This document shows, one piece after another, positions 1,330-50,947 of a DNA stretch of 64,000 bases (position 1 is the first letter of the stretch; each line of letters opens with the position of its first letter). The translations under genes and the position numbers were made by a program. The notes beneath the pieces were generated by a model. The model had not been told where the DNA came from. It was given only the letters and a program-made list of their open reading frames with translations, and did no database searches. This DNA is from a virus (lineage: Duplodnaviria > Caudoviricetes): the IMG/VR virus record IMGVR_UViG_3300026522_000021. One strand, given 5' to 3'.

Positions 1330-1539
1330 TCATTTAAGGTTTGTATCGCTTGTCTGAAGAATCTCTCTTTTATTTCTTCCATATTCAACAACTATCATTG
1401 GTTGTGCATTTCCACCTTGAAAAGTTCTCAGTGTTGGGCATAAACCATTTTTCGCCCACACATTTCCAGCGTATCCAGTGCTAAAATCTTTGCTATAAAT
1501 ATTACCAATACATTTGGCATTATCTGTGTTATCTTGCAT
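1330..1539 (-). CDS. Free-standing MTase target-recognition-domain (TRD)-like module
   Basis: YAGNVWAKNGLCPTLRT..GGN.QPMI resembles TRD repeats of multispecific phage MTases; lies between the MTase halves. Confidence 0.6.
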   Translation of the reverse strand: MQDNTDNAKCIGNIYSKDFSTGYAGNVWAKNGLCPTLRTFQGGNAQPMIVVEYGRNKREILQTSDTNLK

Positions 1540-1735
1540 TATTTATATCTCGCTTTTTATGAACTACATACAAATATGAATATCCACCCATATTCCCTAA
1601 CGGTTGAGCAGTAAGTGCCATAGCTATTCCTCTTGAGTCATAAACCCTATTTCCTTGCCTATACTGTTTACCGAAATTCTTATTACCAAATCCACAAAGA
1701 AAAATAGGTTTATTGCAATTATTTTGCACTCTCAA
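1529..1735 (-). CDS. Free-standing MTase TRD-like module
   Basis: RQGNRVYDSRGIAMALTAQ is a TRD-like signature; overlaps both neighbours. Confidence 0.6.
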   Translation of the reverse strand: MRVQNNCNKPIFLCGFGNKNFGKQYRQGNRVYDSRGIAMALTAQPLGNMGGYSYLYVVHKKRDINNAR

Positions 1736-4205: not shown

Positions 4206-4850
4206 TCAACTTTTTTTTTCAATAATATAATTCTTAATTATTTCAATATCGTCGTTTGTTAAATTAAACCATTCGCAATCACCATTTCTGCGTCTTTTAT
4301 TTTTAAACATATTATGTAATTCTTTTTCAACTATAACATTATCATATACATATTCAAATACATGATATAATGGTTCATCAGGGAGATGAGTATATTCACC
4401 AATTCTTTTTGCTCTTTCATTACATCTTCCTATTTTATAAACACCCATATTCTCCATTACATAGACAAACCCTTGTCTCAAACACTTTGGATTCTCTATT
4501 AATTCATATGTATAATAAAAACACTTATTACCATCACGGTTTTTATGTTGAATCAAATATCCAGATTGTTTTAACTCGCTCCAAGCACTTTCAAATGCTT
4601 TCGTGCCTTCGTTACATTTTGACTTTAAAAAAGATTTATATAAAATAAAACCATCTAAAGTGATGTAACTTTGTATTAAACAATATAAACCTTTTGCTTT
4701 TAAAGAAATATCTTTATCTCTCAATAAATAATTGGAGACAATAGAAAAATTTCCTTTTTTGGTATTTAAAAATGCACCATTCTTATTATTCATATAATAT
4801 TCGCTTTCTATATGTATAAATGCGCCGCGCCGAAACACGGCGCAATCCAT
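4206..4850 (-). CDS. HTH plus T5orf172/GIY-YIG-like domain protein
   Basis: N-terminal SLKAKGLY HTH-like region; C-terminal GFVYVM..YKIGR..EKELH..EWF; AT-rich. Confidence 0.7.
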   Translation of the reverse strand: MDCAVFRRGAFIHIESEYYMNNKNGAFLNTKKGNFSIVSNYLLRDKDISLKAKGLYCLIQSYITLDGFILYKSFLKSKCNEGTKAFESAWSELKQSGYLIQHKNRDGNKCFYYTYELIENPKCLRQGFVYVMENMGVYKIGRCNERAKRIGEYTHLPDEPLYHVFEYVYDNVIVEKELHNMFKNKRRRNGDCEWFNLTNDDIEIIKNYIIEKKS

Positions 4851-11705: not shown

Positions 11706-11807
11706 TGTTTAGCGACCTCAAGAAAGTAAACCAAATGACAACATACACACTGAAACACAAAGCACAAATCTATTTATAGGAGGAGATACCACTATGGCGC
11801 TAAAACA
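11706..11807 (-). ncRNA. Putative antisense sRNA complementary to the shared early-gene leader and RBS
   Basis: Terminal stem TGTTTTAGCG/CGCTAAACA; loop contains CAT..CTCCTCCT..TTTGTGCTTTGTGT..GTGTATGTTGT..GTTTACTT. Confidence 0.55.
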
Positions 11808-11824: not shown

Positions 11825-11952
11825 CAGCGAGGACAGGACTCGAACCTGTAACCTACGGCTTCCTGAATGCGTAACGTTAAAATTGCTGCGCGTATCTAAT
11901 ACAAGATACGTTGTTTGTTTTTACGTTGCTCTGCCAGTTGAGCTACCTCGCT
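11825..11952 (-). ncRNA. ACAGCAA-motif RNA 2 (tRNA-scaffold chimera)
   Basis: AGCGAGG acceptor, canonical D- and T-arms; insert hairpin CGTATCT/AGATACG followed by CGCAGCAA. Confidence 0.8.
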
Positions 11953-12098: not shown

Positions 12099-13598
12099 TT
12101 ACAGTAATCCTTCTACGGCTTCTCTTACTTTCGCGTAGCGTTCTCCATTCAGCGTTTCAAGAAGAACTTTGTAAGGATCAACCTGATTGCTCATGAACAT
12201 CTTCAGGATTTGAACCGAAAATCCACTGCAAAGAATAAGCCCCATATCATTCTGTTGCATCGGGATTGTTCCATTCAAGCGACCGCTTAAATTCCAGAAA
12301 CAAATCTTCGGAAGTTTATATCCTGCGTCCTCGAATTCCTGTGCGATTTCATCAAACAGGCTCTTGTTGAGATTGTGTGAACGACCGTCAAACTGCATGT
12401 CGGAACAAATCACGATCATCTTCGGCATATCTTCCGCAGAAGTATGATTTCTCTTTGCTGTTTTCAGGATCAGCATCATAGTCTTATAGATGTTCGTGTT
12501 TGAACAATCGGATTCGCGCAAGGAAAGATCAACTTTATCTGCAAGCGAATCGCAATTTGACAGATCGACAATCTTCGGATTGGATGAGAAGGTAATAAAC
12601 TTATCTTTCCAATCGCCTGTATTGTGTTCTGACATGTAAATTGCAAGTGCGGTTGCTACATCTAAAGGTGTACCACTTCCTGCAAAACTTCCCCATGTCA
12701 TAGAACCAGAACCATCACGAACAATCAGTGTGTTCTCTACAGACAGATCAGGAAGTGCCTTCCACAGCGCTTCGAGCGTTGCATCTTTTCTGCATCTATT
12801 CTGGCGATACTTCAGGCAGATCTCATGCGGATTAAGCGTGCTTGCGTTAATCTTTGCAGTGCCTTTTTCAAGCGATGCAAGATATTCGCGTCTACGATCC
12901 TCATCATTCCGTAAGAATGCGCTATTGTAGATCAGATTAGCTTTAGAAGGCACAGTTTCATAATTGATCTTATCCCATTTCTTAGCACTCATTTTGACCT
13001 CTACAACATCAAGATACTTTCTAAGTTTGGATAAAGTCTTTCTGTACTTCTTCTCTGTCCATCCAAGTTCACGGCAGATTGTTTTAGCTCTGTCAACTGT
13101 TATCTTGGATGATGCATTGACGCTCGGCATCCACTTCGCACACAGAGAAATCGACTTGCCTTCCTTCATGTTGGCTTTATCTTCTTTCAGCTGCGCCTTG
13201 ATTAAAGCGATTGCCTTTCCTCTCGTTCTTTCATCGTCAAGCATAACCATGACGCTATCCCAACGATTATAGAATGGGATAAGATCAATGATAGCCTTTG
13301 CGATCTTCGGCTGTTTTTCTGCAAGATAGCTCAGTCCAGCTCTGAAAGCTTTTCTCTCACCAAGTCCTTCACGGACATCGCCAAGATAGAAAAGATATTC
13401 AAGCGCTGTCAGCTTATCCTCAAAGAAAACTTTCATGAAATCTTCTTTGATCGCTTCAGGAAATCTGTTACGCATAGCAGATACTCCAAAGTTGAAATCA
13501 AGAAGTTTCTTTCCTGCTGTTGCATAGGCGATCGCGCCGTTTGTGGTTACTGATTTGCGAGTGTTCAATTCATTTTGCATTTCATCGAAGAAACTCAT
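12099..13598 (-). CDS. DUF2828-family TROVE/Ro60-like protein with C-terminal vWA domain
   Basis: TTNGAIAY, DVREGLGER, SLCAKWMPS; MIDAS RDGSGSM; SDMQFD; FWNL. Confidence 0.85.
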   Translation of the reverse strand: MSFFDEMQNELNTRKSVTTNGAIAYATAGKKLLDFNFGVSAMRNRFPEAIKEDFMKVFFEDKLTALEYLFYLGDVREGLGERKAFRAGLSYLAEKQPKIAKAIIDLIPFYNRWDSVMVMLDDERTRGKAIALIKAQLKEDKANMKEGKSISLCAKWMPSVNASSKITVDRAKTICRELGWTEKKYRKTLSKLRKYLDVVEVKMSAKKWDKINYETVPSKANLIYNSAFLRNDEDRRREYLASLEKGTAKINASTLNPHEICLKYRQNRCRKDATLEALWKALPDLSVENTLIVRDGSGSMTWGSFAGSGTPLDVATALAIYMSEHNTGDWKDKFITFSSNPKIVDLSNCDSLADKVDLSLRESDCSNTNIYKTMMLILKTAKRNHTSAEDMPKMIVICSDMQFDGRSHNLNKSLFDEIAQEFEDAGYKLPKICFWNLSGRLNGTIPMQQNDMGLILCSGFSVQILKMFMSNQVDPYKVLLETLNGERYAKVREAVEGLL

Positions 13599-13712: not shown

Positions 13713-13830
13713 AGCGCACGATTGGATTCGAACCAATGACAAATTCTTCTGTGTATTAAGTTGCTGATTGCGATTATCGCTAACCGCGTTTAACAAATTA
13801 AAACTGCACTACCAACTGTGCTACGTGCGC
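13713..13830 (-). ncRNA. ACAGCAA-motif RNA 5 (tRNA-scaffold chimera, no anticodon loop)
   Basis: GCGCACG acceptor, D- and T-arms; insert GCGGTTA-GCGA-TAATCGC-AA-TCAGCAA. Confidence 0.8.
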
Positions 13831-13846: not shown

Positions 13847-14002
13847 CAGCAGTGACAGGAATCGAACCTGTGCTTGCAGCTTGACCAAGTAAACTTGCTG
13901 TGTGTTCCTTTAATTCCCCGACTCTAACTCGTCTATGCGGTTACTCTCGGTGGTAACAAGAAACATTTATATGCTGCCGTGTTCCCACTTCACTACACTG
14001 CC
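13847..14002 (-). ncRNA. ACAGCAA-motif RNA 6 (tRNA-scaffold chimera, large insert)
   Basis: GGCAGTG/CACTGCT acceptor; GCAGC/GCTGC stem encloses a TGTTTCTT/AAGGAACA helix followed by CACAGCAA; GGTTCGATTCC. Confidence 0.8.
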
Positions 14003-14629: not shown

Positions 14630-14633
14630 TTAG

Positions 14634-14953
14634 TGGAGTAGAGGGGAATCGAACCCCTGTCCAAAACTACTCTATAAATATCCTTTACGCCGTTTGGGTT
14701 TGTACTGATCTGAATTTACAGATTCAACTCCGTCTGTCCACCACCTGTTTCACCGTCTTGTATAACAGGAACTTCAATCAGACATTACTTCGATCTTCAG
14801 CATTGACCGTCTAAAAGAATTACTGAAGATAGATGTGGCTCACGCCGCCATCCGATTTTCTGTATAATCAGCGTTTATATTTAGGTTTGATGATTAAGTC
14901 ATCACTCTGGCGAGATATTTACTTTGTAACCCTGTCGAAACCTTTACTACCCC
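14634..14953 (-). ncRNA. ssrA: tmRNA; predicted tag (A)ADYTENRMAA* at 14872-14840
   Basis: 5' GGGGTAGTAAAGGTTTCGAC, 3' GACAGGGGTTCGATTCCCCTCTACTCCA with G3.U70; ATAAAC-GCT resume context; tag ends in AA. Confidence 0.92.
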
Positions 14954-14961
14954 ATATATAA

Positions 14962-15032
14962 CAGCGGTTGAGGGTAATGCTCCCCCTTGTTCTGGGTCAA
15001 AGCCAGACGTATTACTTTTATACTAAACCGCT
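14962..15032 (-). tRNA. tRNA-Gln(TTG) with non-canonical T-loop
   Basis: AGCGGTT stem, TCTGG-CTTTGAC-CCAGA, T-loop AGCATTA. Confidence 0.8.
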
Positions 15033-15040
15033 AAAACTTC

Positions 15041-15148
15041 TTGCAAAAACAATCTGGTTATGGTAATATAGTAAATGCCATCATTAGTTTGGTGTGCTTT
15101 GTGTATGTGGTAGGGAGTTGGCTTTGTGCCTTCTCCCTATCTTTGTTT
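15041..15148 (+). ncRNA. Promoter-sRNA-terminator unit antisense to the early-gene leader motif
   Basis: TTGCAA-17-TAATAT (15041-15069, extended TG); core GTGTGCTTTGTGTATGTGG; TAGGGAG..CTCCCTA hairpin plus T-rich tail. Confidence 0.6.
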
Positions 15149-15162
15149 CCTTCGACTCTTAT

Positions 15163-15191
15163 AGTGTACCACATGTGAATATATTCGTCAA
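15163..15191 (-). promoter_or_regulatory. sigmaA promoter for the tRNA/tmRNA cluster
   Basis: TTGACG-17-TACACT with extended TG. Confidence 0.7.
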
Positions 15192-15215
15192 GCATTATTT
15201 TGCATTATTTATAAA

Positions 15216-15593
15216 CTAATCACAATAGCCTTTAATTAGCTCTAAACCGTATTTATCCAAGACCTTCTCAACCGCATCCCAATAATATCTTCCACAATCT
15301 TCATTGTCGATAACAAATACATTCTCATATTTCGGTTCTTCTTCGTCAGTCCAGCTGTAAATCTGATAAGGTACATCAATATATTCTTTGATCCTAAAAT
15401 GTCCAACACCGTTTCCAGTTACGTCAGACCAATCAAATTCATCTTCATCTTCATCTTCATCGCTCCAATGTTTATACTCTTCATTCGCCATTTCCAGAAG
15501 AATATCAAGCAACCGTCCGCGTGTAACTTTGTCTCTGGATATAATGAAGCTGCTTGAACTACTGTTGGTTACAAAGTCTCTTCTAATCTTCAT
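15216..15593 (-). CDS. NSSSSS-leader protein 1
   Basis: MKIRRDFVTNSSSSSFII; acidic body. Confidence 0.85.
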   Translation of the reverse strand: MKIRRDFVTNSSSSSFIISRDKVTRGRLLDILLEMANEEYKHWSDEDEDEDEFDWSDVTGNGVGHFRIKEYIDVPYQIYSWTDEEEPKYENVFVIDNEDCGRYYWDAVEKVLDKYGLELIKGYCD

Positions 15594-16177
15594 TAAAATC
15601 TCTCCAATGACTCTTTGAAATCATGATACGTCTTGTACTTTTCTTTCCACGATGCTTGAATATCGCCAAGTTTCAAACCATATTTGTCAACCACATAAGC
15701 GATATACTCATAATCGTATAGCTTACGTCTACGCTTATTCTGCTTTTTAATTTCCTCAAAAACTTCATCCTTCGGATCTTTATACTGTGTTAATAGATAG
15801 CTTGCCATATCATAAGAAGAATACTCTTCAAACTGGCAGATCGGACACAGGCATTCTGGCACTTCATAATATCTTTCTGATCCTAAAAGCGTTTCGAATA
15901 ATTCATCATCATCCATTGCTTCAAGCTCTTCACGAGTATAATGAAGATCATATTCTCTGGTTTCTTCATTCCAATAATCGTTTTTCAAAATTTCATTTAT
16001 TTGTTCTTCGCGTGAAGGGTTGAGCATATGCTCCTGACATAATACATGCCCATTTTCACATTCAAACATATCAAAATCTTCTACACTTGCATCCCATCCA
16101 GAACCTTCAGCGCCGCAAATCTCACATACAAAACTACTGGATGAGCTATTCGTCACAAAGTCTTTTCTAAATTTCAT
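15593..16177 (-). CDS. NSSSSS-leader protein 2 (Cys-rich, probable Zn-binding)
   Basis: MKFRKDFVTNSSSSSFVCEICG..CENGH..CPIC. Confidence 0.85.
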   Translation of the reverse strand: MKFRKDFVTNSSSSSFVCEICGAEGSGWDASVEDFDMFECENGHVLCQEHMLNPSREEQINEILKNDYWNEETREYDLHYTREELEAMDDDELFETLLGSERYYEVPECLCPICQFEEYSSYDMASYLLTQYKDPKDEVFEEIKKQNKRRRKLYDYEYIAYVVDKYGLKLGDIQASWKEKYKTYHDFKESLERF

Positions 16178-16178
16178 A

Positions 16179-16451
16179 TTAACTCCAACTAAATTTTACT
16201 GCCGTTGTTGGCACACCTATCAATTCAAGAAATCTTTGCATATCAAAATTATCTATAATGGTATAACCATGTATAAAATATTCGCCTTCATCTATCTGCC
16301 AGTAATCATCAAGATAATAATCTGGCATTATTTCAGGGGCATAATCTTGATAGTTAAATATCTTTTCCTTTTGTTCATCAGTAATAGCAGACTTCGCTAT
16401 TACGAAACTGCTACTACTGCTATTGGTCACAAAGTCAAATCTTATCTTCAT
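16179..16451 (-). CDS. NSSSSS-leader protein 3
   Basis: MKIRFDFVTNSSSSSFVI; start moved to 16451 by alignment with its paralogues. Confidence 0.85.
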   Translation of the reverse strand: MKIRFDFVTNSSSSSFVIAKSAITDEQKEKIFNYQDYAPEIMPDYYLDDYWQIDEGEYFIHGYTIIDNFDMQRFLELIGVPTTAVKFSWS

Positions 16452-16459
16452 TGTTTCCC

Positions 16460-16927
16460 TCAATGATGACTAAATCTTTGGATAGTGCAATCAAGTCTCG
16501 GCATAATTTCATGCTCCAAATCGCCGTTACAATGGTCATCATATTCTACAAGTGCGAGATAACCAAGTCCTTCGATCTTCTGTTTGAATTCTTCAAACCA
16601 CACATCAAGCCTTTCATTTACAGCCTTATCGAACTCATTTTTGTTTTCTGGCTTCTCAATCCAGTCATAGAAATCATGCCACCCAAGCTTTCTTTCGTAT
16701 TCATGCTCAAGAATATACCTTGCATCCCAATACATTTCATCTTTGAACTCATGCAAAGCTTCTTCTTTTGTAATTTTATTTCTCTTGACATCGTTCAACA
16801 CGGTATCAAATCTTTCGCCTAAGTAAAGCTCGTTTCTAAGTGCTTGCTCAACACTTCCTTCATCTTTAAATCCTACAATAAAACTACTGCTGCTCGAATT
16901 TGTAACATAATCTACTCTAATTTTCAT
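16460..16927 (-). CDS. NSSSSS-leader protein 4
   Basis: MKIRVDYVTNSSSSSFIV. Confidence 0.85.
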   Translation of the reverse strand: MKIRVDYVTNSSSSSFIVGFKDEGSVEQALRNELYLGERFDTVLNDVKRNKITKEEALHEFKDEMYWDARYILEHEYERKLGWHDFYDWIEKPENKNEFDKAVNERLDVWFEEFKQKIEGLGYLALVEYDDHCNGDLEHEIMPRLDCTIQRFSHH

Positions 16928-17352
16928 CAGTCATCTCCAGCAAGAATAATGAAATCATCGGATTTTAATTTTAAAAATAGCTCTCCTCTATAATCATCGT
17001 AAGCTATATCTTTCATTAAAATCTTGTATCCTTCATTCATCTTTTCTACACACTCATCATAAGTATCTCTAACCCAAGGATCATCTTTACATAACTCTTC
17101 AAATGTTTCGCACCCATACCCATAATCTTCAAAGAAATAGCGGCGCAAATCTTCCTTGTTTTCAAAAACTTCACTTTCTGTTGTTTCGTATGAGCCTCCG
17201 CTGCCCATCACAGCTTCTTTCACTATTCCCTGATACACTTCAAGAAATGGATATTTCTTCAATGTATCATTATCAATTTCTGGCAAACCTTTAAATGCTA
17301 CAATAAAGCTACTGCTGCTTGAATTCGTAACAAAATCATTTCTTATTTTCAT
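16927..17352 (-). CDS. NSSSSS-leader protein 5
   Basis: MKIRNDFVTNSSSSSFIV. Confidence 0.85.
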   Translation of the reverse strand: MKIRNDFVTNSSSSSFIVAFKGLPEIDNDTLKKYPFLEVYQGIVKEAVMGSGGSYETTESEVFENKEDLRRYFFEDYGYGCETFEELCKDDPWVRDTYDECVEKMNEGYKILMKDIAYDDYRGELFLKLKSDDFIILAGDD

Positions 17353-17860
17353 TTCCTACTATATTCCTCCCAATCAGAAAGAATTGCCATGACTAACAAA
17401 AATATATCAAGTATAAACCCACATCCCAAGATAAGCATAAACACAGCTAATAAAACTGTTGCCATTGTTACAACCCACCAATCTTTATCATGTGTTTGCC
17501 ACTGGAATTCCTATAGACTCACTTACCAGACCTTTTGATTTCGTTTAAATATCTATAGTATTCCTGAACGTTTCCATGTGACCAATAATCATCAAGTATT
17601 TCTTCCTGTTTCTTTGTATCAAATATTCCACCGAAAAGCTCATCTAATACGTCATTTCCAAATAAGCCCATATCATTCACCGTCATATGGCTCTGATAGA
17701 TTGCGCCACGCCACGACATTCAATCCCTTTTCTTTGTTGATATTAAAGCCGAACAGATTATTAGGATTATAAATGTCGTGAATTACACATCTTTCTCCTG
17801 TCGCTTTATCTTCTACCGTCACTTCATATACATTTTCTTCTCTTGGATTTCCGTCATCCT

Positions 17861-18193
17861 TTACGGATCTCCATACCTCATCCTGAAATGTTTTGTATCA
17901 TCTGCGTTAATATAATACATAAACAATCTATAGAAATCCCCATATTCATCTCCTGCCATACCGATATAAAAATTCCAGTCATCAATCGTTAAGTCAGGAT
18001 CATAATCAAAGTTGTCTTTGATTTCTTCGATTGCCTCTTGTGTAGTCAGACCATAATGCTCCGAGTATCTTTTGATTATATCCATGTTGCTTTCAATTAA
18101 ATTATTTAATTCTTCTTCGCTAAAATCTTTATGCAAAGCAACAATGTATGAACTCGAAGAACTGTTTGTCACAAAATCTTGTCTTATCTTCAT
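17861..18193 (-). CDS. NSSSSS-leader protein 6
   Basis: MKIRQDFVTNSSSSSYIV. Confidence 0.85.
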   Translation of the reverse strand: MKIRQDFVTNSSSSSYIVALHKDFSEEELNNLIESNMDIIKRYSEHYGLTTQEAIEEIKDNFDYDPDLTIDDWNFYIGMAGDEYGDFYRLFMYYINADDTKHFRMRYGDP

Positions 18194-18703
18194 ATTATCC
18201 TCTAAGGAATAGCCACTTCAACCAGTCTGGCAAATCGCTATTTATAATCACACCAAAATACCATTTGTTTAGTGCGATAACTGCCACAACAATGACAGCT
18301 ATCGCAATCGCAATTAAAATCTTCTTTACCATTTCTTAATCCCAAGCGTAAAGAAACTCATGTTCATTTGGCTTGCTGTATTTAGCGAAATCATTTTCTT
18401 GATCGTCAAGTTTTGCAAACCGTTTCTTTTCGCTGTGTTTATAGTTCTTCTTTCCGTACCAATCACTGTTGGTTTTATCATAGTCCGTTCTGGTTTCCAG
18501 ATGTTTACACTTTTTAAAACGTCCAACATCACCGACAAATTCTTTCGATGATACTCCAGTCACATCTTCATAGACTTTTGCCTGATGAACAGCCTTATTA
18601 AATGTTTTCTTGCGTCTTTCACCTCTATCGCACATAATGACCCCCACTAAATGTACTAATATAGTCAAAAACTTTCCAATAAAATCCGTCTTTTATTGGA
18701 GTT

Positions 18704-19468
18704 TTACGCAGATGTTAATTCGGCTTCTATTTCATCCTCAAATCTCTGCTCAAGCTCCAATATAGACTTTCCATTCCCTTTCATCGGTTCGCATAATCTG
18801 TATTCAAGACCTTTCAATCTCTTCCAATACTTCGGAAGATACCGATAAATAGATTTTAATTCCTTCAAGTTTTTATTTCGGCAGCACCAACAACTTACTC
18901 GATCTAAACAATCATATAGATCAACCCCACCCTCTTGCCACGCATAACCTTTGCTTCTGCAATATCTCAGGCAGTCTGCTTCGGTCATATTCCATTCGAC
19001 TAAAGGGAGAACCTTTCCTTCATGCTTTGCTTTCTCAAATCGTTGCGGCTCGTCAGCTGCAATTCCAACATAATCAGTCACATCATCATCAATAGTTTTC
19101 TTAAACTTGTCTATTGCTTGTAACTTTCCAGATGTTCCCCATCTACAAGCTCCACCACACCAACTGAAGCCATAATGATAACCTTCTTGTTTTCTATACT
19201 TGACTTCCCTGATTAACATAGAGATCCAGAATGGTTCTTGCGGATGCAGTTCAACGTATTCAATATTTAATTCTTTTAGTTTCGATTTAATTTCATCTCT
19301 TATATGATAGATTGAATCGAATTCCATTCCTGTATCGTAAAATACTACATAGTCAAGCGGATAATTCTTCTCTATCAACATAAGTAACATTGCTAAACTA
19401 TCTTTTCCAAAACTTACACTTGCAATATATTTCACACCGACCACTAACCAGATCGCGGCAATGGTCAA
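18704..19468 (-). CDS. PAPS-reductase-family (PP-loop) protein
   Basis: SVSFGKDS PP-loop, DTGMEF, GIAADE, RVSCWCC. Confidence 0.85.
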   Translation of the reverse strand: MTIAAIWLVVGVKYIASVSFGKDSLAMLLMLIEKNYPLDYVVFYDTGMEFDSIYHIRDEIKSKLKELNIEYVELHPQEPFWISMLIREVKYRKQEGYHYGFSWCGGACRWGTSGKLQAIDKFKKTIDDDVTDYVGIAADEPQRFEKAKHEGKVLPLVEWNMTEADCLRYCRSKGYAWQEGGVDLYDCLDRVSCWCCRNKNLKELKSIYRYLPKYWKRLKGLEYRLCEPMKGNGKSILELEQRFEDEIEAELTSA

Positions 19469-19623
19469 TTATTAAATCCTCCCATGCTAATGGCAATGCC
19501 TTCACGCTGTAACTAATAATTCTACACGCAACTTATCAATCTTTGCGAAACCCGGTCTACCGGGATTGGTGTTACTCCTTTTCTTTATTTTTTAAAATTA
19601 AATTATTTTGCATTATTTATTTC

Positions 19624-20442
19624 CTATTCACCGATATAAACCAACTTGTCTATGTATTCTCTATCTTCTCCTGCAAAAATCGGTATATTATCATCGGCAA
19701 CCCAATCAGAGCCACAGTATTTTACACAACTTCCTCGTTTCATAACGGTAGGATAATCATCCCAATTTACACCTTTTTCTTTGAGTAACATTTCCTTTAT
19801 TTCATTGCAACTCTTATTCTGAAGTTGTTTCTGCGTGAAGCATGATTGCCCAAGCATTTGTATACTATTTCTTATTGCATCAAGCTGTCTCCAATAGAAA
19901 TAATTTGTCACTTCTTCTTTTGTAAGATTAAAACATCTGGAGTCGAACATTGCGCCCCTTATTTTGGCTTTATAATAGACTTCATGTTGCTTCAATATTT
20001 TTCTTTCGTTATCTGATAAACGTCTATTTGTTCCACCTTCATCCCAATCTTCAATATTTTCTCTTCCAAACATATCAATGTTTGCCTCAAAATTTCTATT
20101 GAATATAAGAGTTGCTATAGAAGCTGTTACGCTACATACCTTTTGCACTTCATAGCCAAAGAACGCTTCAGTGTTTAATGATTTATAATCAATCAGCAAC
20201 AAAGAAATCTCATCGGATTGATGATAACCAAGAACGCATCCCTGAATGTTCACGCATAAATACTTCATCGTATCTTGCATAGTTTTTATCAATAAAGAAT
20301 CAAACGGCTTTTCAAAACATCTTGTAAAAGTATGAAATGCTTTTCCGTCAATGCGTATAATAACTGGCATCCTTCTTATTAAAGAGTTTTTTGGAACGCT
20401 CTCATACGTTTTCATCCTCTTTGCCAAATCGCTATTATCCAT
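19624..20442 (-). CDS. Thg1-like tRNA(His) guanylyltransferase / 3'-5' polymerase
   Basis: IRIDGKAFHTFT, YHQSDEISL, FDSR, WRQLDAIRNS. Confidence 0.92.
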   Translation of the reverse strand: MDNSDLAKRMKTYESVPKNSLIRRMPVIIRIDGKAFHTFTRCFEKPFDSLLIKTMQDTMKYLCVNIQGCVLGYHQSDEISLLLIDYKSLNTEAFFGYEVQKVCSVTASIATLIFNRNFEANIDMFGRENIEDWDEGGTNRRLSDNERKILKQHEVYYKAKIRGAMFDSRCFNLTKEEVTNYFYWRQLDAIRNSIQMLGQSCFTQKQLQNKSCNEIKEMLLKEKGVNWDDYPTVMKRGSCVKYCGSDWVADDNIPIFAGEDREYIDKLVYIGE

Positions 20443-21514
20443 TATTTATCCTTTCTTTATCACATAAAACAATCTCACTTCTAATCGGGCATCCTCCCAT
20501 ACACTCTCTTCTTCTTTCGCAATTCGGACACGAATTTCTAAAATGATTTCTGAAATCTTCAAACACTTCACTGTCCCATGCGTTCTGAATAGTATCGTTT
20601 GAAATGTCATACGCCCATTTCATGTCCTGATTGTCAAAGCTGCACGGCAGAGCTTTCATGTCTGATGTAATATACATTGACCATCTACCGCCCTCGCAAG
20701 TGTCAAAACTATCAGGATTGATTTTTGTTGTGAAATTGATTAGTCCGGGAACAGTACAGCTATCAAACCCGATTTTAAAATCATGATCGTAATTTTCTAC
20801 AATATTGAAAAACTTAGAAACTCTGCTATCGTTCACCTGTAAAACATTATCGGATTGACCAAGCCCAACAGGTTTATGAAGAAGGAATATAATCGCATTA
20901 ACGCCCTTTGGAAAATCGTTATCCTCAAGTCTTTGAATTGCTTCGTCAATGGAATTTTTTCCGAGAACATAATGGATGTTTGTCTTTACTCCTTCATCAA
21001 TAAGCATCTTAATTGCTCTAAGTGTATGTGGCTGTCTGTACCAACTGATTGCTACTGCGCCGCAATACTTCCTGCAAAGAGAAACAATCTCGTCATTAAA
21101 TCCTAATCCCGAAGATGTGAAATTAGGAACGATATTATTTTCGCGGCAGTATTGAAGGATCTCTTTGAAGTTTTCATGTTGATCTACATCGCCACGACCG
21201 CCAAGCGCAAGCTGATAACATTTTCCTTTACACTCATCAACAATTCTTTTAAAGTTTTCCAATGTCATGTTTGGATATTTCGTTTCAAGTCCGTTCTGAT
21301 AACACTGAACACCTGACTTGATACATAATCCGCTGCGTCCATGCTTGCAAAATCCCATTACGCCCACATCTATCAGTTCAGGGAATGAACTCATAAACGG
21401 ATCAACGCCTGTATCTTTCCCATGTTCATCAAGAATACCTGACCGCATATAGAACCCTGTATCTGGATTAAACATTGAAATGTATCTGTTCTTCTTGTCG
21501 TATTTGCGAATCAT
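20435..21514 (-). CDS. Radical SAM/SPASM protein with expanded cluster motif
   Basis: CKHGRSGLCIKSGVQCY (CX7CX6C), ALGGRGD, SPASM CEGGR..LPCSF..CPNC..CMGGCP. Confidence 0.88.
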   Translation of the reverse strand: MIRKYDKKNRYISMFNPDTGFYMRSGILDEHGKDTGVDPFMSSFPELIDVGVMGFCKHGRSGLCIKSGVQCYQNGLETKYPNMTLENFKRIVDECKGKCYQLALGGRGDVDQHENFKEILQYCRENNIVPNFTSSGLGFNDEIVSLCRKYCGAVAISWYRQPHTLRAIKMLIDEGVKTNIHYVLGKNSIDEAIQRLEDNDFPKGVNAIIFLLHKPVGLGQSDNVLQVNDSRVSKFFNIVENYDHDFKIGFDSCTVPGLINFTTKINPDSFDTCEGGRWSMYITSDMKALPCSFDNQDMKWAYDISNDTIQNAWDSEVFEDFRNHFRNSCPNCERRRECMGGCPIRSEIVLCDKERINNG

Positions 21515-28857: not shown

Positions 28858-28974
28858 TTTCTTTATCCTCCTTTGTTTGATTTGCTTTGTGTTCTTTGTT
28901 TACTACCTCTCTATGTGAACATGTTACCACATAAAGAGGTAGATGTCAACTATTATTTTGAATTATTTTTTAAT

Positions 28975-29898: not shown

Positions 29899-30001
29899 CT
29901 CTATACCTCCTTATTAATTTGCTTTGCTTTGTGTAACTATAAGATAGCACATCATTTACTATCTGTCAATACCTATTTCAAAAATTTTCTTGTATTATTT
30001 C

Positions 30002-30290: not shown

Positions 30291-30999
30291 ATTAAATTGT
30301 AGTTTTTAAATACTAAGATTTTCTGTATACGCATGAGCAGAAAATCCATGTTTTGAAAAACGAATTTTACATAGCAAATAAATCTATTTTTGAAAAACAA
30401 CAAATTAAGAAAGAATAGTTTTCAAAAATTGATATTATTTGTCGCACGACAAAGAGCCTTGAACTTATGTCCAAGGCTTTCTGTGTTCTTTTATGGTTTC
30501 TTTTTCAAGCTCGTTATCACATTTATCGCACAAATCATAATGAAAAATCTTCATCCAAGGTTTAATCACAAGACTTGCTCCGCATCTGGCGCATGTCTGA
30601 TGTCCATAGACTTCTTCATATATCATCATGTGGTCTGCGCGTTCTCTTCTATTTCCTGTTGGAATAGATTTATGTTCTCTATCTATTCCTGAATAATCTG
30701 GATCATCAAGATATAAACTGATATCTTTCTTCCAAGGTTTTCTTCTATGGAAACTGCGAGGAATGCTGCGACCAAATAGATCAATCAATCTTGCATTGTT
30801 TGTTCTGCTTCTAAATACGCGATCAATAGTGAGATCAACATTGTCTTTCAAGTTTATTCCTTCTTCCCTAAATGGTCACAATACTCAGCATCATTGCAAT
30901 CCTTACAGTTTCCATCGCATCCGTATTCAACTTCGAGATAGACATTGCATTTTGTACAATTTCCAGAGTTGCATTTTTCCTCAGTATAAGGACAGATAT

Positions 31000-37384: not shown

Positions 37385-37983
37385 TGTGTGTACCTCCTTG
37401 GTTTGATTTGCTTTGTGTATTTGCTTTACTATATATTAGCACAAGTTAATAGATAGTGCAAGCGTTTTCTCTAATTATTTTTAGATTTTTATAATTCAAT
37501 TTTTCTGCGCGGATGATACGGCAAATGTTAATTTTTGAAAATTGATTATTTTGTTTGCAACAAACAAATATTTCCAGTTTTCAAAAACTATTATGCGATA
37601 CAAAAGAAAAACGCCAGATTGCTCTGGCGCTTATCTTATTCAGCTTCTATCCTTTGGATCTCTATTAACGGAATTATATAAACATCATCTGCGATCACTT
37701 CTTTTTCCGTAAAGTAAAGACTGTTACAATGTAATATGCTCCCATCATAGTTTATAATTTTCAATGTTCTTGTCTCCTTCCAAAATAATTTGTGTTTTCG
37801 CATCAAGAATGATTGTTGAATGTGGGCTAACTGAATGTGTCCATAATTCTACTTCTTCATGCCATTTCCCACTGACAGCAGAATATATCCTTCCATATTT
37901 TACAATGCCGACATTATCAATCTTCGACATCCTAACACCATCATCCGTTTCCTTTCTGATTATTGCGTTCATTTATTCACCCC

Positions 37984-38670: not shown

Positions 38671-38972
38671 TGTGGATCTCCTTTCGATGCGTTTGTGTAT
38701 GTGATTTATCATCTGTAAACACTATACCACACAAAAATAGATATTGCAAGCGTTATTTTGAATTATTTTTAATTTTTTATAATCGGCTTTTTCTGCACGA
38801 TGCGCCGCAAAATTTCCACGTTTTGAAAAACATCAACTTACTGATTTGATTTTTGAAAATCAAACTTATTTGCAACAAATAAAAGAAGGGCATCACTGCC
38901 CCTCTATGATCCCCATGTCATTACATAACATGAAGATATAACTATATCTGTTTTCTTTGTTCATCACGTTAA

Positions 38973-39374: not shown

Positions 39375-40055
39375 TCTGTAACACCTCCGCTATTATTTTT
39401 TAGAAAGAGCAACCACTGTTGTACTATACTTCATCCCCCTATGGCTGCGCGATTGATGTATCAGAGGGAACAACATTTTCGCGAAACTATGAATAAAACA
39501 ACTCTTCATATTAAATCATCCGAACGTGCGACCGTTAATAGTTATCTTCATCGGAATAATCATTGCTGTAACTTCTGTGAAAAGCTCTCGGAGCTGATCG
39601 CAATGGATTTCTTTGAATGATTTAACCTCCGTATCTTTCGCGTCCTTCCATCCGTTTCCAGTTTTGACATAGCGGTTCATATTAAATGTGGCATTTGTGT
39701 GCCGATAGAAACGCATGTTATAAGTATCGCTGTCGTGATTATAACGGATCTCGCACCTGTTCGCCTTGCTACCATTTCTCGGAATATTCATTACCAGAAA
39801 ATCCTGATCCCCTGATGAATGAAAATTGCTGCATCCTGTGCAAGCGATAAACTTTCTTCCTCCAAGCTGAACTAAAATTTCCTCTGCGATTGTCATTGTG
39901 GCTTCCTCCTTCGCTTTGTGTATGTTGTTTACTTGCTGACTATAATATAACTCCTCTTCTGCATATTGTCAAGTATTATTTTGAAATATTTTTAAAAGGT
40001 TTCTTACACACATTTATATTGTTTTTGAAAACTGAATTTTTCTGTATGGGGAAAT

Positions 40056-41139: not shown

Positions 41140-44100
41140 ATACTGTACCTCCTTTGTGTATGTTGTTTATAGGATAGCACATTCATACTATCCTGTCAAT
41201 AGTTATCTTGTGTTATTTCTTTTCCATGTCAATGATGAATTTTTCCTTCACCTGACTCGGAAACATCGTATCGCCCCATGCCGAATAGCCTTTAACATAT
41301 TTGCTTTCAATCTTCCGATTGCCTTTATAGATTGCCCACATCGGCGCAAATCCGCGCTCGTAGATTGCCGTATATGTTTCGCCTTTATATTCGATCTTAA
41401 ATCTGTATGCTCTTTTCATAATCCACCTCCGCAAATTTTCCTAATATTGAAAAACATTACAATACTGCGATCAAAGTTTCCAATGCTTTATAGCATTCCT
41501 TTGCTGTCATTACAGGGCTGCATCTTCTACCCCAATGCAGAACGGTATACATTCCTGACTCCTGATATACTTCGAGCTTGTGCCTGTTATTCCTTCCTTC
41601 TTTGTTGTATTCTTCCAGCAGCTTGTCAATCTTTCCTTTGTATTGCATCATTCTACCTTCTTCCCATCAACAATATCAAAATAAATCTGATTAAAAGTAT
41701 CATTTGGCTCTGCTATCACAAGTCCAACTCCTGCGCGATCTACCGCTAAATACTCGCCATGTGGAGTCTGTATTACTTTGTATGGATAAGAACCTAAAAT
41801 ACGCTTCTCTGAATCTAAAGTCTTTCCAAGATACTCTTTAACGTTCGCCGTTGATAATCTCATCTTTTCCACCTCCTTAAAAGATAAATCCTGCTTTATA
41901 CAGTTTGTCGATTGCGCGATCCACGCTCTCGAAAACCCTGATTGCCTGATCTTCCAGAACCGCGACAACATCGCCCTCTTTGGTTTCGTATATAACGACT
42001 TCTTCATCATGGAAATTAACCATTCTTTCCACTTCTTCAGACTGCGCGATGAATACCTTATATTTTCCCAACTTCATACCAGAGAATGTATCGTTCACGC
42101 GCTTAACCGCATCCTCAAAAGCTGTACCCATGCCAAAAGCCTCATAGAAATAATACTGACCGCCTTCAGTTTCAACGCCGATACCCTGATACATTTCCAT
42201 CAGTCTTTCCATTCTTTCCTTCGTCATTGTTTTATCCTCCTATGATCTGGCGCTTTAACTACAAATCGTTTTCAATCAACCAACGGCGCTCGGCTCGTCA
42301 ATCAACCGTTTTATAGAAATGTGCGTTGCTGTGTTTGTGTGTATCTCGTTTACTTGCTAACACTATAACTCACATTTCTGATCTTGTCAATACCTAATTC
42401 AAAAATTTATTTGCATTATTTATTATTTTTCAAGAATGGATTTTTCTGCGCCACGTTCACCAGAATATAATAGTTTGGCAAAATTAGAAATTTCTGCCGA
42501 TGTGCTTTGCAAAACTCTTTTGTTTTTCAAAACTGAATTTTTCTGTGGCTATGAGTTTTAGTTTTTGAAAATCAAAATTTTCTGTTGCACAAAAAGAAGA
42601 AGCTCCGAAGAGCTTCATCCTACGAATATGATTTCATTCTTTCCTCTTGTGTTCACATAGATTTTGAACTGATTGTGTCGCTTCTCTACCATCAAGATAT
42701 TTTCTGCTTTTGTGCGCTTGTATCCTTTTCTTTTCCTGACGATTGAAAGAACCAAAGAAGGATCATAGTTGACTTTATACATATTCTTTTCGTATTCCCA
42801 ATATGCATGGCTTCTTTCTCTTTCAACTGCATTCATAATCTTATATGTTTCCTCGTCATCCGTGAAAACATTCTTGTATTTGAAGAACTTGAATGCCGTG
42901 AAATTTTCCTCTTCAGAACTTGGATAATAAACGCCGCCACGATCATTTTTAACAGGCTTGCAAACCCTTACAACGATCTCGCATAATCCGCGATCATAAC
43001 GCCTGAATGCTTCTCTGCAAGCTGCGCCAGTCGTGATATAAATAATAATCCTTGCGCCATCATCAGCCAGTAAATCAGTATGACAATCAAACTCACTACA
43101 AGAATAATTATTCTGCGAAAAATCGAACCTTGCTCCATTGGATATGTACTCGGATACCAGATTAGAATAAACCTTTTCAATATCTTTCTTTGTGTATAAC
43201 ATTTTCTTCCTCCTTATCTACGATAGATGCAACCAGTCCAAACCTTTTCAACAGTGCCAGCGCACTCGCAATTCTTACAACCATTACAGATTGAATTGCA
43301 TTTATCACTCTTGAAAGTGTCAAGATGCTTGTATGCTGTTTTCCTGAGTCTGAGAATTGTTTTTTCTGCATCTTCCAGTCTTTCAAAAATTCCACCATTG
43401 CAAGGACTTGTCATATAATTATATGTGACCATGTAACCGCGTCCGTTTTCCATCTTCTCGATGATTGCCATATCCGTGACCGCCACATCTTGAAACCTTG
43501 CAACTACATTTTTGTATCTTTCCATTAAGTTAGCCATATCGTTTCCTCCTGTGCGTTTGTGTATTTGATTTACTATATAGTAACTCGGATCAATAAATAT
43601 GTCAAGATAATTTTTGAATTATTTTAGTTTTTTGATATTCAATTTTTCTGCTGACTGCATCGCAATTTTCCATAGTTTTCCAAAACTATTTTCAATCGTG
43701 CGCCATGTGCGATGATCTATAGTTTTCCAAAACTGAATTTTCCTGTTAAGCCAAAAGAAGAAGCGGATCTCTCCGCTCCTGTCTTCATCTTGCTTCGTAT
43801 GTTCTTTTCTGTAGCTTGGCTCTCTTGTCTATTATTGCCATGCTGTTATAGAACTTTGTCGCTTCTGCTTCAGTGTCGAATGTCCTGCAATACTCCGCGC
43901 CTGTTGTATGAAAATATACTTGCCAGATTGTGACCATCTTATTGTCTCCCTTCTGTATTATCTTGCTTTGCTTATCCTTCATAACGATCATGTAAAGCCA
44001 TCGGTCTATCACCAAAATGCTCTCTGAAACGACTATCGGAAGTATAAATGAATGAGCCTCCCATCATCCACCATCTACCCGGATGCGCAATCGGATAGGC

Positions 44101-47100
44101 ATGTGTGAACGTTCCGAAAGAATAATGTTTCGTTACTGCCTTCACCAGATTTTCAGGAAGATTTTCAGGATCATCAAGATCGAATTCCCAATTCCCATCA
44201 GGGCAAATTATATATGCTGTTTTAAATCTGTTGCTGATCCCATTGTTGCTGCAATTTCCGATGTTCTTGCTTTCGTAAATGTCAACGCTTAATGCTCTAA
44301 CCTTATTCATTGTGTACCTCCTTGGTTTTATGTGTTTGTGTATGTCGTTTACTATGTTTAGATGATAACTCCATTTTTCCAGAATGTCAATACTTATTTT
44401 GAATTATTTTTAAAATCTTTTTAGCTGCAAGGATCAACAATAATTCCACGTTTTCCAAAACCAAAATATGAGTACACCATCCAACAGAAAAATCTAATTT
44501 TCAAAAACTAAATCTTTCCGTGAGGACAAAAAAAAGAAGAGGCTCGCGCCCCTTCAGTCGAGAATCCAATACTGTTTTGAAAAGAACATGTAAATCATGC
44601 AAGGTATCATGAACACTGCGAATGTCGCATCGCCATCTAATAGCGGAACTGTTACCGCCGACAGGACGATCATCAACAGCGCATATAATTTCTGCTTCAT
44701 CATGTTCGGTTTTTCCATTTCGCTGATCCAGAATGTATCTGTCACTGTTCCATTGTATCCGTCATAATCTGCCAGCGTTTCAATACATGCTGCGTTATAG
44801 TCTTGCGCGATTTCCAGAGCATCATCAAAATCATCCAGAACATCAATCACGTTGTCGCGCTTGTCGATCACTGCGTAAACATCATAATCCAGATTGTAAG
44901 CTAAATTTTCCATTATATATACTCCCTTCGTAACTTCTTTATGTAATATGATATAAACAAGTATTATCTTGCATTATCCAAAGAATACAGACACTCCAGA
45001 ATAATTCATGTTGACCTTGCGCCATGTCTGAACCTTCATATTTCTATGTATCGGCTTGTAAATCCTTGTAAATTCATCAATCCAGACTGAGAAGCATCCG
45101 ACCTCCTCGGAATTGTCGCGAATGATCCTGATATTATTCTGCTTTAAAATTTCCATCACTTGTTTTCTGGTCTTGCATTGCTCGATTTTCTTTTTGATTT
45201 CTTCGTTCATTGTTTCCATCTCCTGTGAGCTTGTGTATGTCAGTTACTAAAAGCAATATAGCATATTTTTCGCATGATTGCAAGCGTTATTTTGCATTAT
45301 CTTTTATTTTTTAATATTGGATTTTCCTGCACCTCTCCAGCGCAATGAATTTATGTTTTCCAAAATTAGATTTTTCTGTTCTGCTGTCCGCAAAATTTCC
45401 GCGTTTTCAAAAACCATAGCTGTGAGTTTTTAGTTTTTAAAAATTCCATTTTTCTGTGCGCTTGAGTTTTCGTTTTCCAAAAATAGAATTTTCTGCAAGC
45501 ACGAGAAAACAGGACGCTTTTACACGCCCTGTTCTCCCACACACAACACACACAACGAATTGAGATAGTAGTCAATTTTCAATGACAAGTTCGGCAATGA
45601 TCCCATTCTGCAAGTCGGAAAGCTCATGCTTCACTCGTCTTTTCGCTATTTCCAGTTCATCCACATCGAAATATGCGATTGTCTGTTGCGGATTTTCTGG
45701 ATCATATAACCTGTAGGCGTTCATTTCTTTAACGAAATATGCTTTATAAATCTTTTTCATGTTAAACCTCCTCGCCGTTTTCCATCAGCTCAATCTGTTC
45801 GATTGCGGTATGAAGTGCGCTGCAAATATACTTTTCTGTTTTGGTTTCTCCTGTGTCAGCGTCGATCATCTTTTCCACAACCAGCAGATAATTCTTTCCA
45901 TCTTCGTAAATGTAATAATGATTGCTTCCTTCATAGAATATACAATCTTCATAGTCAGAATGAAAGTCTTTAATTCTTAACATCTCCACGCCCTCCGTGA
46001 TTGCTTTGTGTATTTGATTTACTATAATGTAACTCTTTCCATCTGTTTTGTCAACACTTATTTTGAATTATTTTTAAAACGCCAGATGCGGAGAAATATC
46101 CAAAACTCCGCGCCTGTCTTAAATGTAGTATGTATTGACTATCATTGTAAGTTTTCCGCTCTTTTCATCATACAAGTATATGATTACAAGAACAGGCGTT
46201 TTCTTATCACTCATTGGCAAGTCCTCCATCAATAGCTTTGTGCTTTGTGTTTTGCGGAACTGCCAAGGATATTTTTTAATTGCAATGGTCACGAGTCGAA
46301 CGTGATGCAATCGAATTTTCCGATGCCCTGATCCGTCAGCCATGCCGATCTTTACAGGAAATTATATTTCATTTCATCCCATGCATAATTGAGAAGCTGT
46401 CGAATTCTGCAATCGAATGTGTTAACATCTTTAATCATCCAGTCAACCAGACCTTCAGCACCTCCGATAGCTTTGATCTTTGTCTTGAGTGCCTTGAAAA
46501 CAAATTCATCGCACTCTTCCACCTTGATAACCTTCTTGATAACATCGCCTCGCTGATAGTTTGGCGTGATCTTCTGAATGATTATTGAATTGTTGTGAAG
46601 TCCGCTCGGTACGACAGACCAATCAGCAACCTTTATGCTCTGTCTTGTATTCATATCAAATGTAGTTTCATGATACTCGAAAAGTTTCATTGTGTGCCTC
46701 CTTTGTGTATGTGTTTTACTATCTATGATTATACTCGGATTTTCTGGCTTGTCAATACTTATCTTGAATTATTTTTAAATTTTTAAAACGGCGATTTTCT
46801 GCCACTGGCAGCGATCCGCTCCAGCTGCTCGGCGATAATCTTATGTTTTTGAAAATTCAAATTTTCTGCGCCTGATCCATCGACCGATACAGAAAATTGT
46901 AATTCTTAAAAACTATGATCCTGTTATTATTGTTTTGGAAAACTCCGATAATCTGCACGGCGATCCGCAAAAAGATTTAATTTTTGAAAACGCGATTTTT
47001 CTGTTTCTATGCTGTCGCGCCGATGCGATCCGCACACAAAAGAAAACAGGCGATTGCTCGCCTGTTCTGTATCGTGTTATCTTGTATTGCTTTTAGAAAA

Positions 47101-47787
47101 ATCTGCTGTTGCTCTCGCAAACCTCGATAGCGACTGACTCTTGATTGAGTGCTACCTTTGCCATGCTCGCCGCCTTCTCGATTGTCGCCTGATCCGATCC
47201 GTAAATCACGCATACCAGTGTCGGCTCGATTACGACTGTACCATCATCATGTGTGTAAACTCCAGTTCCCTCGGTGATTGTCGCGCCGCCTGTTGTCTGT
47301 GCGAAAATGTTAGCTGCGATCTTGAACGCGTCAATCGTTGTGATTTCCTGATGCTTTGTGTCCTGATCCAGAAGTCCGATGCAGATTGTTGTCTTTGTCA
47401 TGATAATTACCTCCATGTGTTTGATGTGTGTTTGTGTATTTCATTTACTGATTGTATGATAACTCCATGCCTTCACTTTGTCAATAGGTTTTTCAAAAAT
47501 TTTTTTGAATTATTTTTTACCTGTCGCGATCCGCTCCCACTGGCAGAAAATCATGATTTTCTGTATATATCAATGCAAATTTTCCATATATTCCAAAACT
47601 AAATTTTCCATTGTACATATATACATATAATCTATGTTTTTGAAAATTAAGATTTTCTGTTAGAGAAAACCAGAGGGAAAACAAATATTCCGCGTTTTGA
47701 AAAACATTGATCCGTTGCGCTGGCAGATTTTCAGATTTTCCAGACAAAAAAAAGGAACGCCTCTCGGCGCTCCCTTCGGATTTTCCG

Positions 47788-50309: not shown

Positions 50310-50947
50310 ATTTTGTTCTCCTTTTCGTTCGATGTGCTTGTGTGTTTGTTTTGTGTATGTGGTTTATTAGGTTCTGTCAATACAATAGCACCGTTAATAG
50401 ATATTGTCAAGCATTATTTTGCATTTTTTAAAAATTATTTTTTTCTGTCATTCTGGACAGGGAAAACAGAAAAAGACTTTTTTCTTTTCCCTTATATAGA
50501 AGAAACACAAACAAAAAACATGCTCCGATCTCCGCTCGGCGCGGCATTTTTTAGGGTAAAAAAGAGCCAAAAACCGCGTAAAATCAAGGCTTTTCGGCGT
50601 TTTGAGTCTCCTCCTGTTTTCCGCTGATTTTTCGATTGATTTTTACGGCTTATTAAGTTTTGCAAAACATGGATTTTTTGCGGAATATCGCTTTAATAGA
50701 GTAAAGCATGAAAGCGACAGGATCAGCACGCTTTATCACATTAAAGTGCGACAGTAAAGAAGGCAGATGATAGGTTAGATAGCACTAACCAGTATGCGCG
50801 GATCATATGGTTAGATAATGCTAACTATCGGATGCAGCTGGACAGGTTAGAGCGCACTAACTCGGCAGTGAATACTTTATTGCTGTAAAGTGCGAAAGCT
50901 GCGGATCAGATGCTTTAACAGAGTAAAGTGATGAAGGAAGAAAAGCA

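Follow-up and report, generated by a model that had tools for sequence, protein, structure and literature searches.

At 15041–15150 of the window (the whole stretch of 64,000 nt of phage DNA analyzed here), a short unit with a promoter-like site, two hairpins, and a T-rich tail lies on the + strand among genes read from the - strand. Two questions arise: whether the unit is a gene for a small RNA (sRNA), and whether such an RNA would act on the transcript that it overlaps or on the early mRNAs of the phage, whose leaders carry a sequence complementary to it.

Genomic setting of the locus

The source is taken to be an uncultured, large, SPbeta/c-st-like phage of Gram-positive bacteria. A 927-aa protein encoded at 53136–55919 has 40–42% identity to proteins of Clostridium phage c-st and of Enterocloster phages, and its more remote match is YonO, the single-subunit RNA polymerase of SPbeta-like Bacillus phages. 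Genes are on the - strand from position 1 to ~50.5 kb and on the + strand beyond 52 kb. Searches of GenBank phages with megablast and blastn identified no homolog of the sRNA unit or its surroundings and yielded matches to tRNAs only.

The unit overlaps the start of an operon of structural RNAs on the - strand:

15163–15215, - strand: early-type promoter of the operon, with TTGACG at 15191–15186, 17 nt with TG, and TACACT at 15168–15163; it faces the sRNA unit
15034–15156, - strand: sense 5′ leader of the RNA operon, the full complement of the sRNA, with box ACAUACACAAAGCACAC and no ribosome site after it
14961–15033, - strand: tRNA-Gln(UUG), gene 1 of the operon (ARAGORN and Rfam), which begins 7 nt from the sRNA -35
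14633–14953, - strand: phage tmRNA with the tag ADYTENRMAA, gene 2 of the operon (ARAGORN; Rfam RF00023, 92 bits)

A tRNA-Trp and a tRNA-Lys complete the operon (ARAGORN, Rfam). With tRNA and tmRNA genes below it and an early promoter above it, the locus runs antisense within the 5′ leader of an RNA operon that is transcribed early. The operon promoter carries the A/T-rich upstream element AAATAATGCAAAATAAT, as do ~22 other - strand promoters in the window, and is kept in the related sequences L172, L198, L277/L292, and G001. An earlier note on this DNA had recorded a - strand promoter at 15191–15163; this is a genuine member of the early promoter family, upstream A/T element included. The note missed that the operon encodes tRNA-Gln and tmRNA. 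The tmRNA gene sits between tRNA-Gln and tRNA-Trp; only tRNA-Gln and tRNA-Lys are found there in the close relative L292.

Architecture of the predicted sRNA unit

The unit has four parts, all on the strand opposite to the operon:

15041–15069, + strand: sRNA promoter, with -35 TTGCAA at 15041–15046, a 17-nt spacer, TG at 15061–15062, and TAATAT at 15064–15069
15077–15097, + strand: 5′ stem-loop SL1 (GCCAUCA / UGGUG-GC), present in both the MFE and the centroid fold and as the same hairpin in 8/8 homologs
15098–15108, + strand: unpaired linker UUUGUGUAUGU, the proposed seed, 11 nt, the exact complement of box AUACACAAA
15109–15150, + strand: terminator, with a 9-bp outer stem, a 2x2 internal loop, and a 3-bp inner stem (15109–15141), followed by TTTGTTTCC

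The earlier note had described TTGCAA-17-TAATAT with TG, a hairpin, and a T-rich tail, and all of these are present where it placed them. Transcription is predicted to start at ~15075–15077, with SL1 at or near the 5′ end. The + strand RNA folds at -29.3 kcal/mol (z = -6.6) into a single dominant structure, whereas the sense leader at 15034–15156 folds weakly (z = -2.2). Partition-function folding gives the linker an unpaired probability above 0.9 and an opening energy of 0.14 kcal/mol, and extending the seed into either hairpin costs 5–12 kcal/mol. The 9-mer at 15098–15106, within the linker, is the motif repeated elsewhere in the window. The terminator hairpin folds at -21.1 kcal/mol, and the U-tail of the window's own copy is interrupted (UUUGUUUCC). 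Strong hairpins with a T-run behind them are uncommon: the + strand has three in 50.5 kb.

The promoter is less distinctive. Its score is ordinary (8/12 of the consensus plus TG), it does not have the A/T element found upstream of early promoters, and 97 sites on the + strand of 1–50500 score equally, so the match alone is weak evidence. It was not among the sites listed by a program promoter scan of the window. Such matches are frequent, and the sense promoter is strong and conserved; both points agree with an account that has no + strand RNA, in which the region does no more than form a structured 5′ leader for the tRNA/tmRNA operon and resembles a + strand promoter and terminator by chance. 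The homologs described below bear on that account.

Several other identities were considered for the locus. Rfam searches at gathering thresholds and at E values up to 10 identified no family except tRNA and one chance lncRNA match, and a riboswitch, a T-box, or another known leader RNA was rejected on this ground. A small protein was rejected: the + strand ORFs at 15041–15178 and 15094–15219 overrun the terminator, have no ribosome site, and are out of frame in the homologs owing to loop indels. A type I toxin-antitoxin pair was also rejected. The sole - strand ORF (15195–15058, 45 aa) begins upstream of the sense -35 and reads hydrophilic, and beyond it the sense strand continues into tRNA-Gln.

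Homologous units in other genomes

Seven homologous units were identified in other uncultured contigs, making eight with the window. A relatives search with the neighboring 125-aa ORF gave three weak loci, one of them L001, and the unit of that 121-kb viral contig (G001; L001/L127) was thus reached via a neighboring protein and then recognized by eye. The others were found by DNA patterns: L132 in a 50.7-kb provirus (G002), L172, L198, L219, and L236 in metagenome contigs, and L277 in contig C189 of G003, the same contig as L292. Three further searches were unproductive. A relatives search with the Ro-like protein found none; the pattern AGTAAANGCCATCAT gave 120 chance matches and no true one in viral contigs, missing L001 for the absence of one base; and the seed-free pattern GCCATCA..TGATGTGC gave, among the matches listed, chance ones only. 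Because seven of the eight units were found with patterns that contain the seed, leaving G001 as the sole independent case, the invariance of the seed is largely by construction and proves nothing.

An alignment of seven sequences (A1) shows no change in TGnTAnnAT, in the T and G of the -35, or in the distance between these elements, while the spacer and the upstream sequence are replaced; the promoter of L198 agrees with this pattern. Between the -10 and SL1 there are 6 nt in six of the units and 10 nt in the other two, so short a gap that the RNA would begin with the hairpin. A covariance model (R1) recovers 8/8 units with E values of 3e-7 to 3e-22 and on the sRNA strand only. The structural alignment (A5), which was fitted to the model and holds eight sequences from ~4 lineages, has 19 pairs with 152/152 pair cells standard and four pairs changed on both sides (compensatory). 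Its inner stem occurs as GGC/GCC, AAGC/GCTT, GGAA/TTCC, and GGA/TCC, one outer pair varies among A-U, G.U, and C-G, and no slid control comes near this level of pairing.

A G.U pair in the terminator stem of 5/8 sequences would be a C.A mismatch on the other strand, and a U.G pair in SL1 of the window would be an A.C mismatch. Owing to such strand-specific G.U pairs, the sRNA strand folds more stably than its complement in all homologs, and in every one of them it is this strand that has the T-run after the hairpin.

The comparative data are good evidence that the unit encodes a real + strand RNA. The earlier note had proposed a self-contained + strand sRNA gene, and the homologs support it, since none of the eight has lost the promoter, the 5′ hairpin, the linker, or the terminator. 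We regard a + strand sRNA gene with a predicted product of ~70 nt as probable, and with some confidence. A fortuitous promoter and terminator in an operon leader are correspondingly improbable: TGnTAnnAT and the -35 are held at fixed spacing within replaced sequence, only the + strand has the G.U pairs and the T-run, and the G002 unit occurs without a sense promoter of the family.

Position of the units relative to the operon

Six of the eight units lie antisense in the same leader, between a conserved early-type promoter ~100–150 bp away and tRNA genes. This arrangement agrees with a role in cis only, in which a real sRNA controls the tRNA-Gln/tmRNA operon by interference between convergent promoters or by cleavage of the duplex, and its matches to other leaders are a by-product of the operon leader being one of the early-leader family. 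The sRNA is perfectly complementary to the operon leader throughout, and its seed region alone pairs there at -38.4 kcal/mol.

Against this stand the two remaining units. The G002 unit stands alone, after the terminator of an unrelated choline-binding-repeat protein gene, and has neither a tRNA nor a consensus early-type promoter on the sense side in its surroundings. The L236 unit, in a short contig, is divergent from a consensus promoter and without a tRNA operon; a sense-strand leader ~300 nt away has a 15-nt exact complement upstream of a ribosome site. As neither has the tRNA operon, the conserved module is the sRNA itself rather than the sense leader. Cleavage of the operon leader would also matter little, since RNase P removes it anyway. 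A distance of 55 nt separates its box from the -10 and no ribosome site follows, so that no need for the box on the sense strand is obvious, and the unpaired linker exactly matches the invariant 9-mer of other leaders. We consider a purely cis-acting RNA rather unlikely, though it is the alternative to which we give the most weight.

The stand-alone copy in G002 is at 1507–1588 (-) of locus L257, near the edge of the unrelated provirus, which has 49% G+C overall and ~42% locally; genes for choline-binding-repeat and Big_2 proteins adjoin it. The contig of L277/L292 is a 101-kb phage contig closely related to the window and was binned in a MAG labeled Bacteroidales. Its sigma-A-type promoters and strong Shine-Dalgarno (SD) sites argue that this label is a binning artifact.

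Complementarity to early gene leaders

The motif TTTGTGTAT occurs in 14 copies in the window, all written on the + strand, where 1.06 are expected, and 14 copies were reached in 0/100 shuffles. Eleven copies lie ~10–20 nt past the -10 of consensus - strand early promoters (37.4–50.4 kb) and precede AGGAGG-type ribosome sites by 0–25 nt. The remaining copies are one directly after an ATG, one intragenic, and the sRNA locus. Exact matches of at least 10 nt (10–15) to the sRNA number 17 on the - strand RNA, 14 of them in leaders or at a start codon; matching at this length adds the leaders at 45231, 46239, 28883, and 29925. Together with two leaders that have the 9-mer only, these 14 make about 16 early sites:

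50350–50363, - strand: leader box, 14-nt exact complement, -32.5 kcal/mol
48142–48156, - strand: leader box, 15-nt exact complement, ending 9 nt before the SD
47431–47439, - strand: leader box, 9-mer
46701–46713, - strand: leader box, 13 nt, abutting the SD (AUACACAAAGGAGG)
46239–46250, - strand: operon-internal leader box, 12 nt, upstream of GGAGG-ATG
46002–46013, - strand: leader box, 12 nt
45231–45240, - strand: promoter-proximal leader box, 10 nt
44335–44345, - strand: leader box, 11 nt
43556–43564, - strand: leader box, 9-mer
43188–43197, - strand: box immediately after the start codon of the ORF at 42615–43202
41152–41163, - strand: leader box, 12 nt, abutting the SD
39913–39925, - strand: leader box, 13 nt
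38692–38703, - strand: leader box, 12 nt, -29.7 kcal/mol
37409–37420, - strand: leader box, 12 nt
29925–29935, - strand: leader box variant UACACAAAGCA, 11 nt
28883–28892, - strand: leader box variant ACACAAAGCA, 10 nt

Two leaders have the box directly against the SD; in the rest it ends 5–25 nt upstream. These counts bear out what the earlier note had reported: its matches of 15/15 at 48142–48156 and 14/14 at 50350–50363 are both exact, its core common to about 16 early leaders corresponds to the 14 copies of TTTGTGTAT against ~1 expected plus the longer matches, and the placement it gave, near ribosome binding sites (RBSs), holds for about 16 sites just upstream of, or at, those of early genes.

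Duplex energies were computed for the 26-nt seed region against the 12 promoter-proximal leaders (37–50 kb). They range from -19.6 to -32.5 kcal/mol, ignoring the cost of opening the hairpins. Among 2,000 control windows the mean is -12.8 kcal/mol, with the 5th percentile at -19.2 and the 1st at -23.3. All 12 leaders are at or below the 5th percentile of the controls and seven at or below the 1st. Some of this complementarity could follow as a by-product from the overlap of the sRNA with a leader that belongs to the same family.

Early leaders in G001 carry a related tag, GTAAA-N4-ATACACA, but only 5/18 pair at or below the 5th percentile of the controls. The G001 seed differs from that of the window by one base, and no clear co-variation of seed and box was seen between the two, in a comparison where the seed formed part of the search patterns. 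When the 50 kb of G002 were scanned for targets of its own sRNA copy, no enrichment of boxes was identified.

A second anti-leader RNA

A further complement of the early leaders was identified on the other strand of the window, within the tRNA genes:

11706–11807, - strand: second anti-leader RNA, transcribed with the tRNAs, an inverted copy of an entire early leader whose ends close in a terminal stem

It carries anti-AUG, anti-SD (CUCCUCCU), anti-ACACAAAGCAC, anti-ACAUACAC, and anti-AGUAAAC sequences, and is located between a tRNA-like gene and tRNA-Leu(UAA). The + strand at 11706–11807 has no promoter, and its sole ORF (26 aa) enters the antisense of the tRNA-like gene. An identical RNA (100%) is present at 3754–3866 of L198. 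In L219, a G001-type contig, a counterpart at ~4460–4590 (+) likewise precedes tRNA-Leu(UAA) and has a wholly different closing stem. Two independent anti-leader RNAs of the same polarity favor recognition of the leaders at the RNA level.

In an alternative explanation, the box and the AGTAAA upstream of it are a DNA operator for a phage repressor, like SPBRE/MrpR, and the complementarity at the RNA level is without function. In SPbeta, a 15-bp element at ~10 early promoter regions is bound by the master repressor (PMC10516654). In the window, AGTAAA holds a fixed 4-nt gap upstream of the box (ATACACAAA), giving a unit AGTAAA-N4-AUACACAAA whose inner spacing is fixed and yet whose distance from the -10 varies from 2 to 13 nt; in some promoters AGTAAA would lie partly upstream of the start site, and it also follows the -10 of the sRNA itself. 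AGTAAA may be a protein-binding half-site. However, the box always points the same way as transcription and keeps to the ribosome site, even in the operon-internal leader and at the promoterless start codon. At the sRNA locus the AGTAAA half is missing and 55 nt separate the box from the -10. The complement in the second anti-leader RNA reaches the SD and the AUG, which points to recognition of RNA. An operator with functionless complementarity is improbable, and the operator reading is compatible with a trans-acting sRNA. AGTAAA is also found inside the spacer of three promoters (29969, 34078, and 35165).

The tRNA region around the second RNA has another unusual feature. Rfam tRNA matches of 118–156 nt, with large insertions in the tRNA bodies, occur on the - strand at 11825–11952, 13713–13830, and 13847–14002. 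They flank an ORF at 12099–13598 (-) that encodes a 499-aa protein of PHROG 850 ("RNA-binding protein"), and by analogy the arrangement recalls modules of Ro with Y RNA or tRNA-like RNA.

Proposed mode of action

The reading we prefer, to which we assign a probability of roughly 0.5, is that the ~70-nt RNA acts in trans by pairing with early leaders of the same phage. Host sigma-A RNA polymerase would transcribe the unit at 15041–15150 (+) from its extended -10 promoter, and the intrinsic terminator would end an RNA of ~70 nt composed of the 5′ hairpin, the 11-nt G/U-rich linker UUUGUGUAUGU, and the terminator hairpin. The linker would pair with the C/A-rich box (CCAC)AUACACAAAG, 0–25 nt upstream of or at the RBSs of ~16 early mRNAs. 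Pairing would mask the box, probably a translation enhancer of the ACA type or a standby site, and in several leaders the adjoining SD as well. Translation would decrease, the mRNAs would be open to decay, and the early regulon would be turned down. Because the only unfolded stretch of the RNA mirrors the tag of the early genes, the sRNA probably lowers their translation. Production of the RNA, its pairing in vivo, and the direction and size of its effect are what we infer from the sequences.

As the sRNA lies antisense within the operon leader, it could have a purely cis-antisense role or be in a sponge relation with it, and as a perfect complement the leader would be either a cis target or a sponge. 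Once freed by tRNA processing, it might, speculatively, set the timing of the sRNA as such a sponge. A wider version of the trans-acting reading makes the unit a portable module for immunity or exclusion: a prophage or the G002 copy would silence the leader tag of incoming SPbeta/c-st-like phages, the sponge leader of the carrier would neutralize the sRNA when the carrier is lytic, and with the second RNA the whole would form an RNA-only circuit for timing and competition. We regard this version as a long shot.

Comparison with known systems

Enterobacterial GcvB was reportedly described by Sharma et al. in 2007 as setting a G/U-rich region, R1, against C/A-rich motifs. With its G/U-rich region, GcvB silences ACA motifs that lie immediately before the SD and enhance translation (Yang, Figueroa-Bossi and Bossi 2014, PMC3879156). 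By analogy, GcvB is the nearest mechanistic precedent for the predicted RNA, and c4 of phages P1 and P7 the nearest phage precedent. Like GcvB, the predicted RNA carries a single-stranded G/U-rich seed and ends at an intrinsic terminator, and its proposed multi-target regulon takes in many mRNAs with C/A-rich (ACA) sites shortly before the SD. It differs in having no homology of sequence or structure (the Rfam GcvB model is unmatched at E values up to 10), in being phage-encoded in a Gram-positive-type setting, in its targets, which would be the early genes of the phage itself, and in being nested in the leader of a tRNA operon.

The c4 RNA of P1 and P7 (immI; Rfam C4) is processed from the transcript of its targets and controls one operon, icd-ant. 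It shares with the RNA described here small size and phage origin and, as predicted in our case, action in trans at short complementary sites near the RBSs of the phage's own mRNAs and a part in control of development or immunity. Unlike c4, the present RNA has its own promoter on the opposite strand and a terminator, ~16 dispersed targets, and no match to Rfam C4. The lambda OOP and P22 sar RNAs are cis-encoded antisense RNAs with convergent promoters. As in the present case, the RNA is short, has a terminator, and is fully complementary to the 5′ portion of a phage transcript read in the opposite direction. In contrast to both, what is overlapped here is a non-coding tRNA/tmRNA leader, some copies of the unit lack that leader, and the seed matches many unlinked leaders. 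The repeated box resembles SPBRE/MrpR in that an SPbeta-like phage carries a short element at ~10–20 early promoter regions. A protein recognizes SPBRE as DNA, whereas here two encoded RNAs complement the transcribed copy of the element.

No homolog of the sRNA is found in Rfam or in GenBank phages, and the principle of a base-pairing phage sRNA is already known. What is new is that a Gram-positive-type phage has a leader tag across a regulon, that the sRNA is nested in a tRNA/tmRNA leader, that it has a partner anti-leader RNA, and that another provirus carries a stand-alone copy. If the trans-acting reading is true, post-transcriptional control would extend over the whole early regulon of a large, temperate-type phage whose Gram-positive hosts live in the gut or rumen; one or two sRNAs would read a C/A-rich leader tag private to the phage and act beside a protein repressor or replace it. 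Common leader sequences of phage early genes would then be explained, enhancer silencing of the GcvB kind would extend to phages of Firmicutes, and the tag and its sRNA would be a compact, transferable pair for synthetic control. The stand-alone copy in G002 hints at a role in competition between phages.

Other features of the region

The ORF that adjoins the locus (15216–21514, - strand) has only a 22-residue N-terminal motif, MKIRxDFVTNSSS..., in common with its G001 counterpart (L001 4337–4400). The other two strong + strand hairpins with a T-rich run in the block of - strand genes, at 49393–49428 and 30449–30484, each have a weak promoter-like site upstream and could be further antisense units or bidirectional terminators. 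Nearly all early promoters have a conserved AAAATAAT(T/G)CAAAATAAT immediately upstream of the -35, including ~22 on the - strand (among them those at 50410, 48201, 38749, 14365, and 2839) and one on the + strand at 51969. The same element is found in G001 and L292 and could be an UP element or the site of a regulator.
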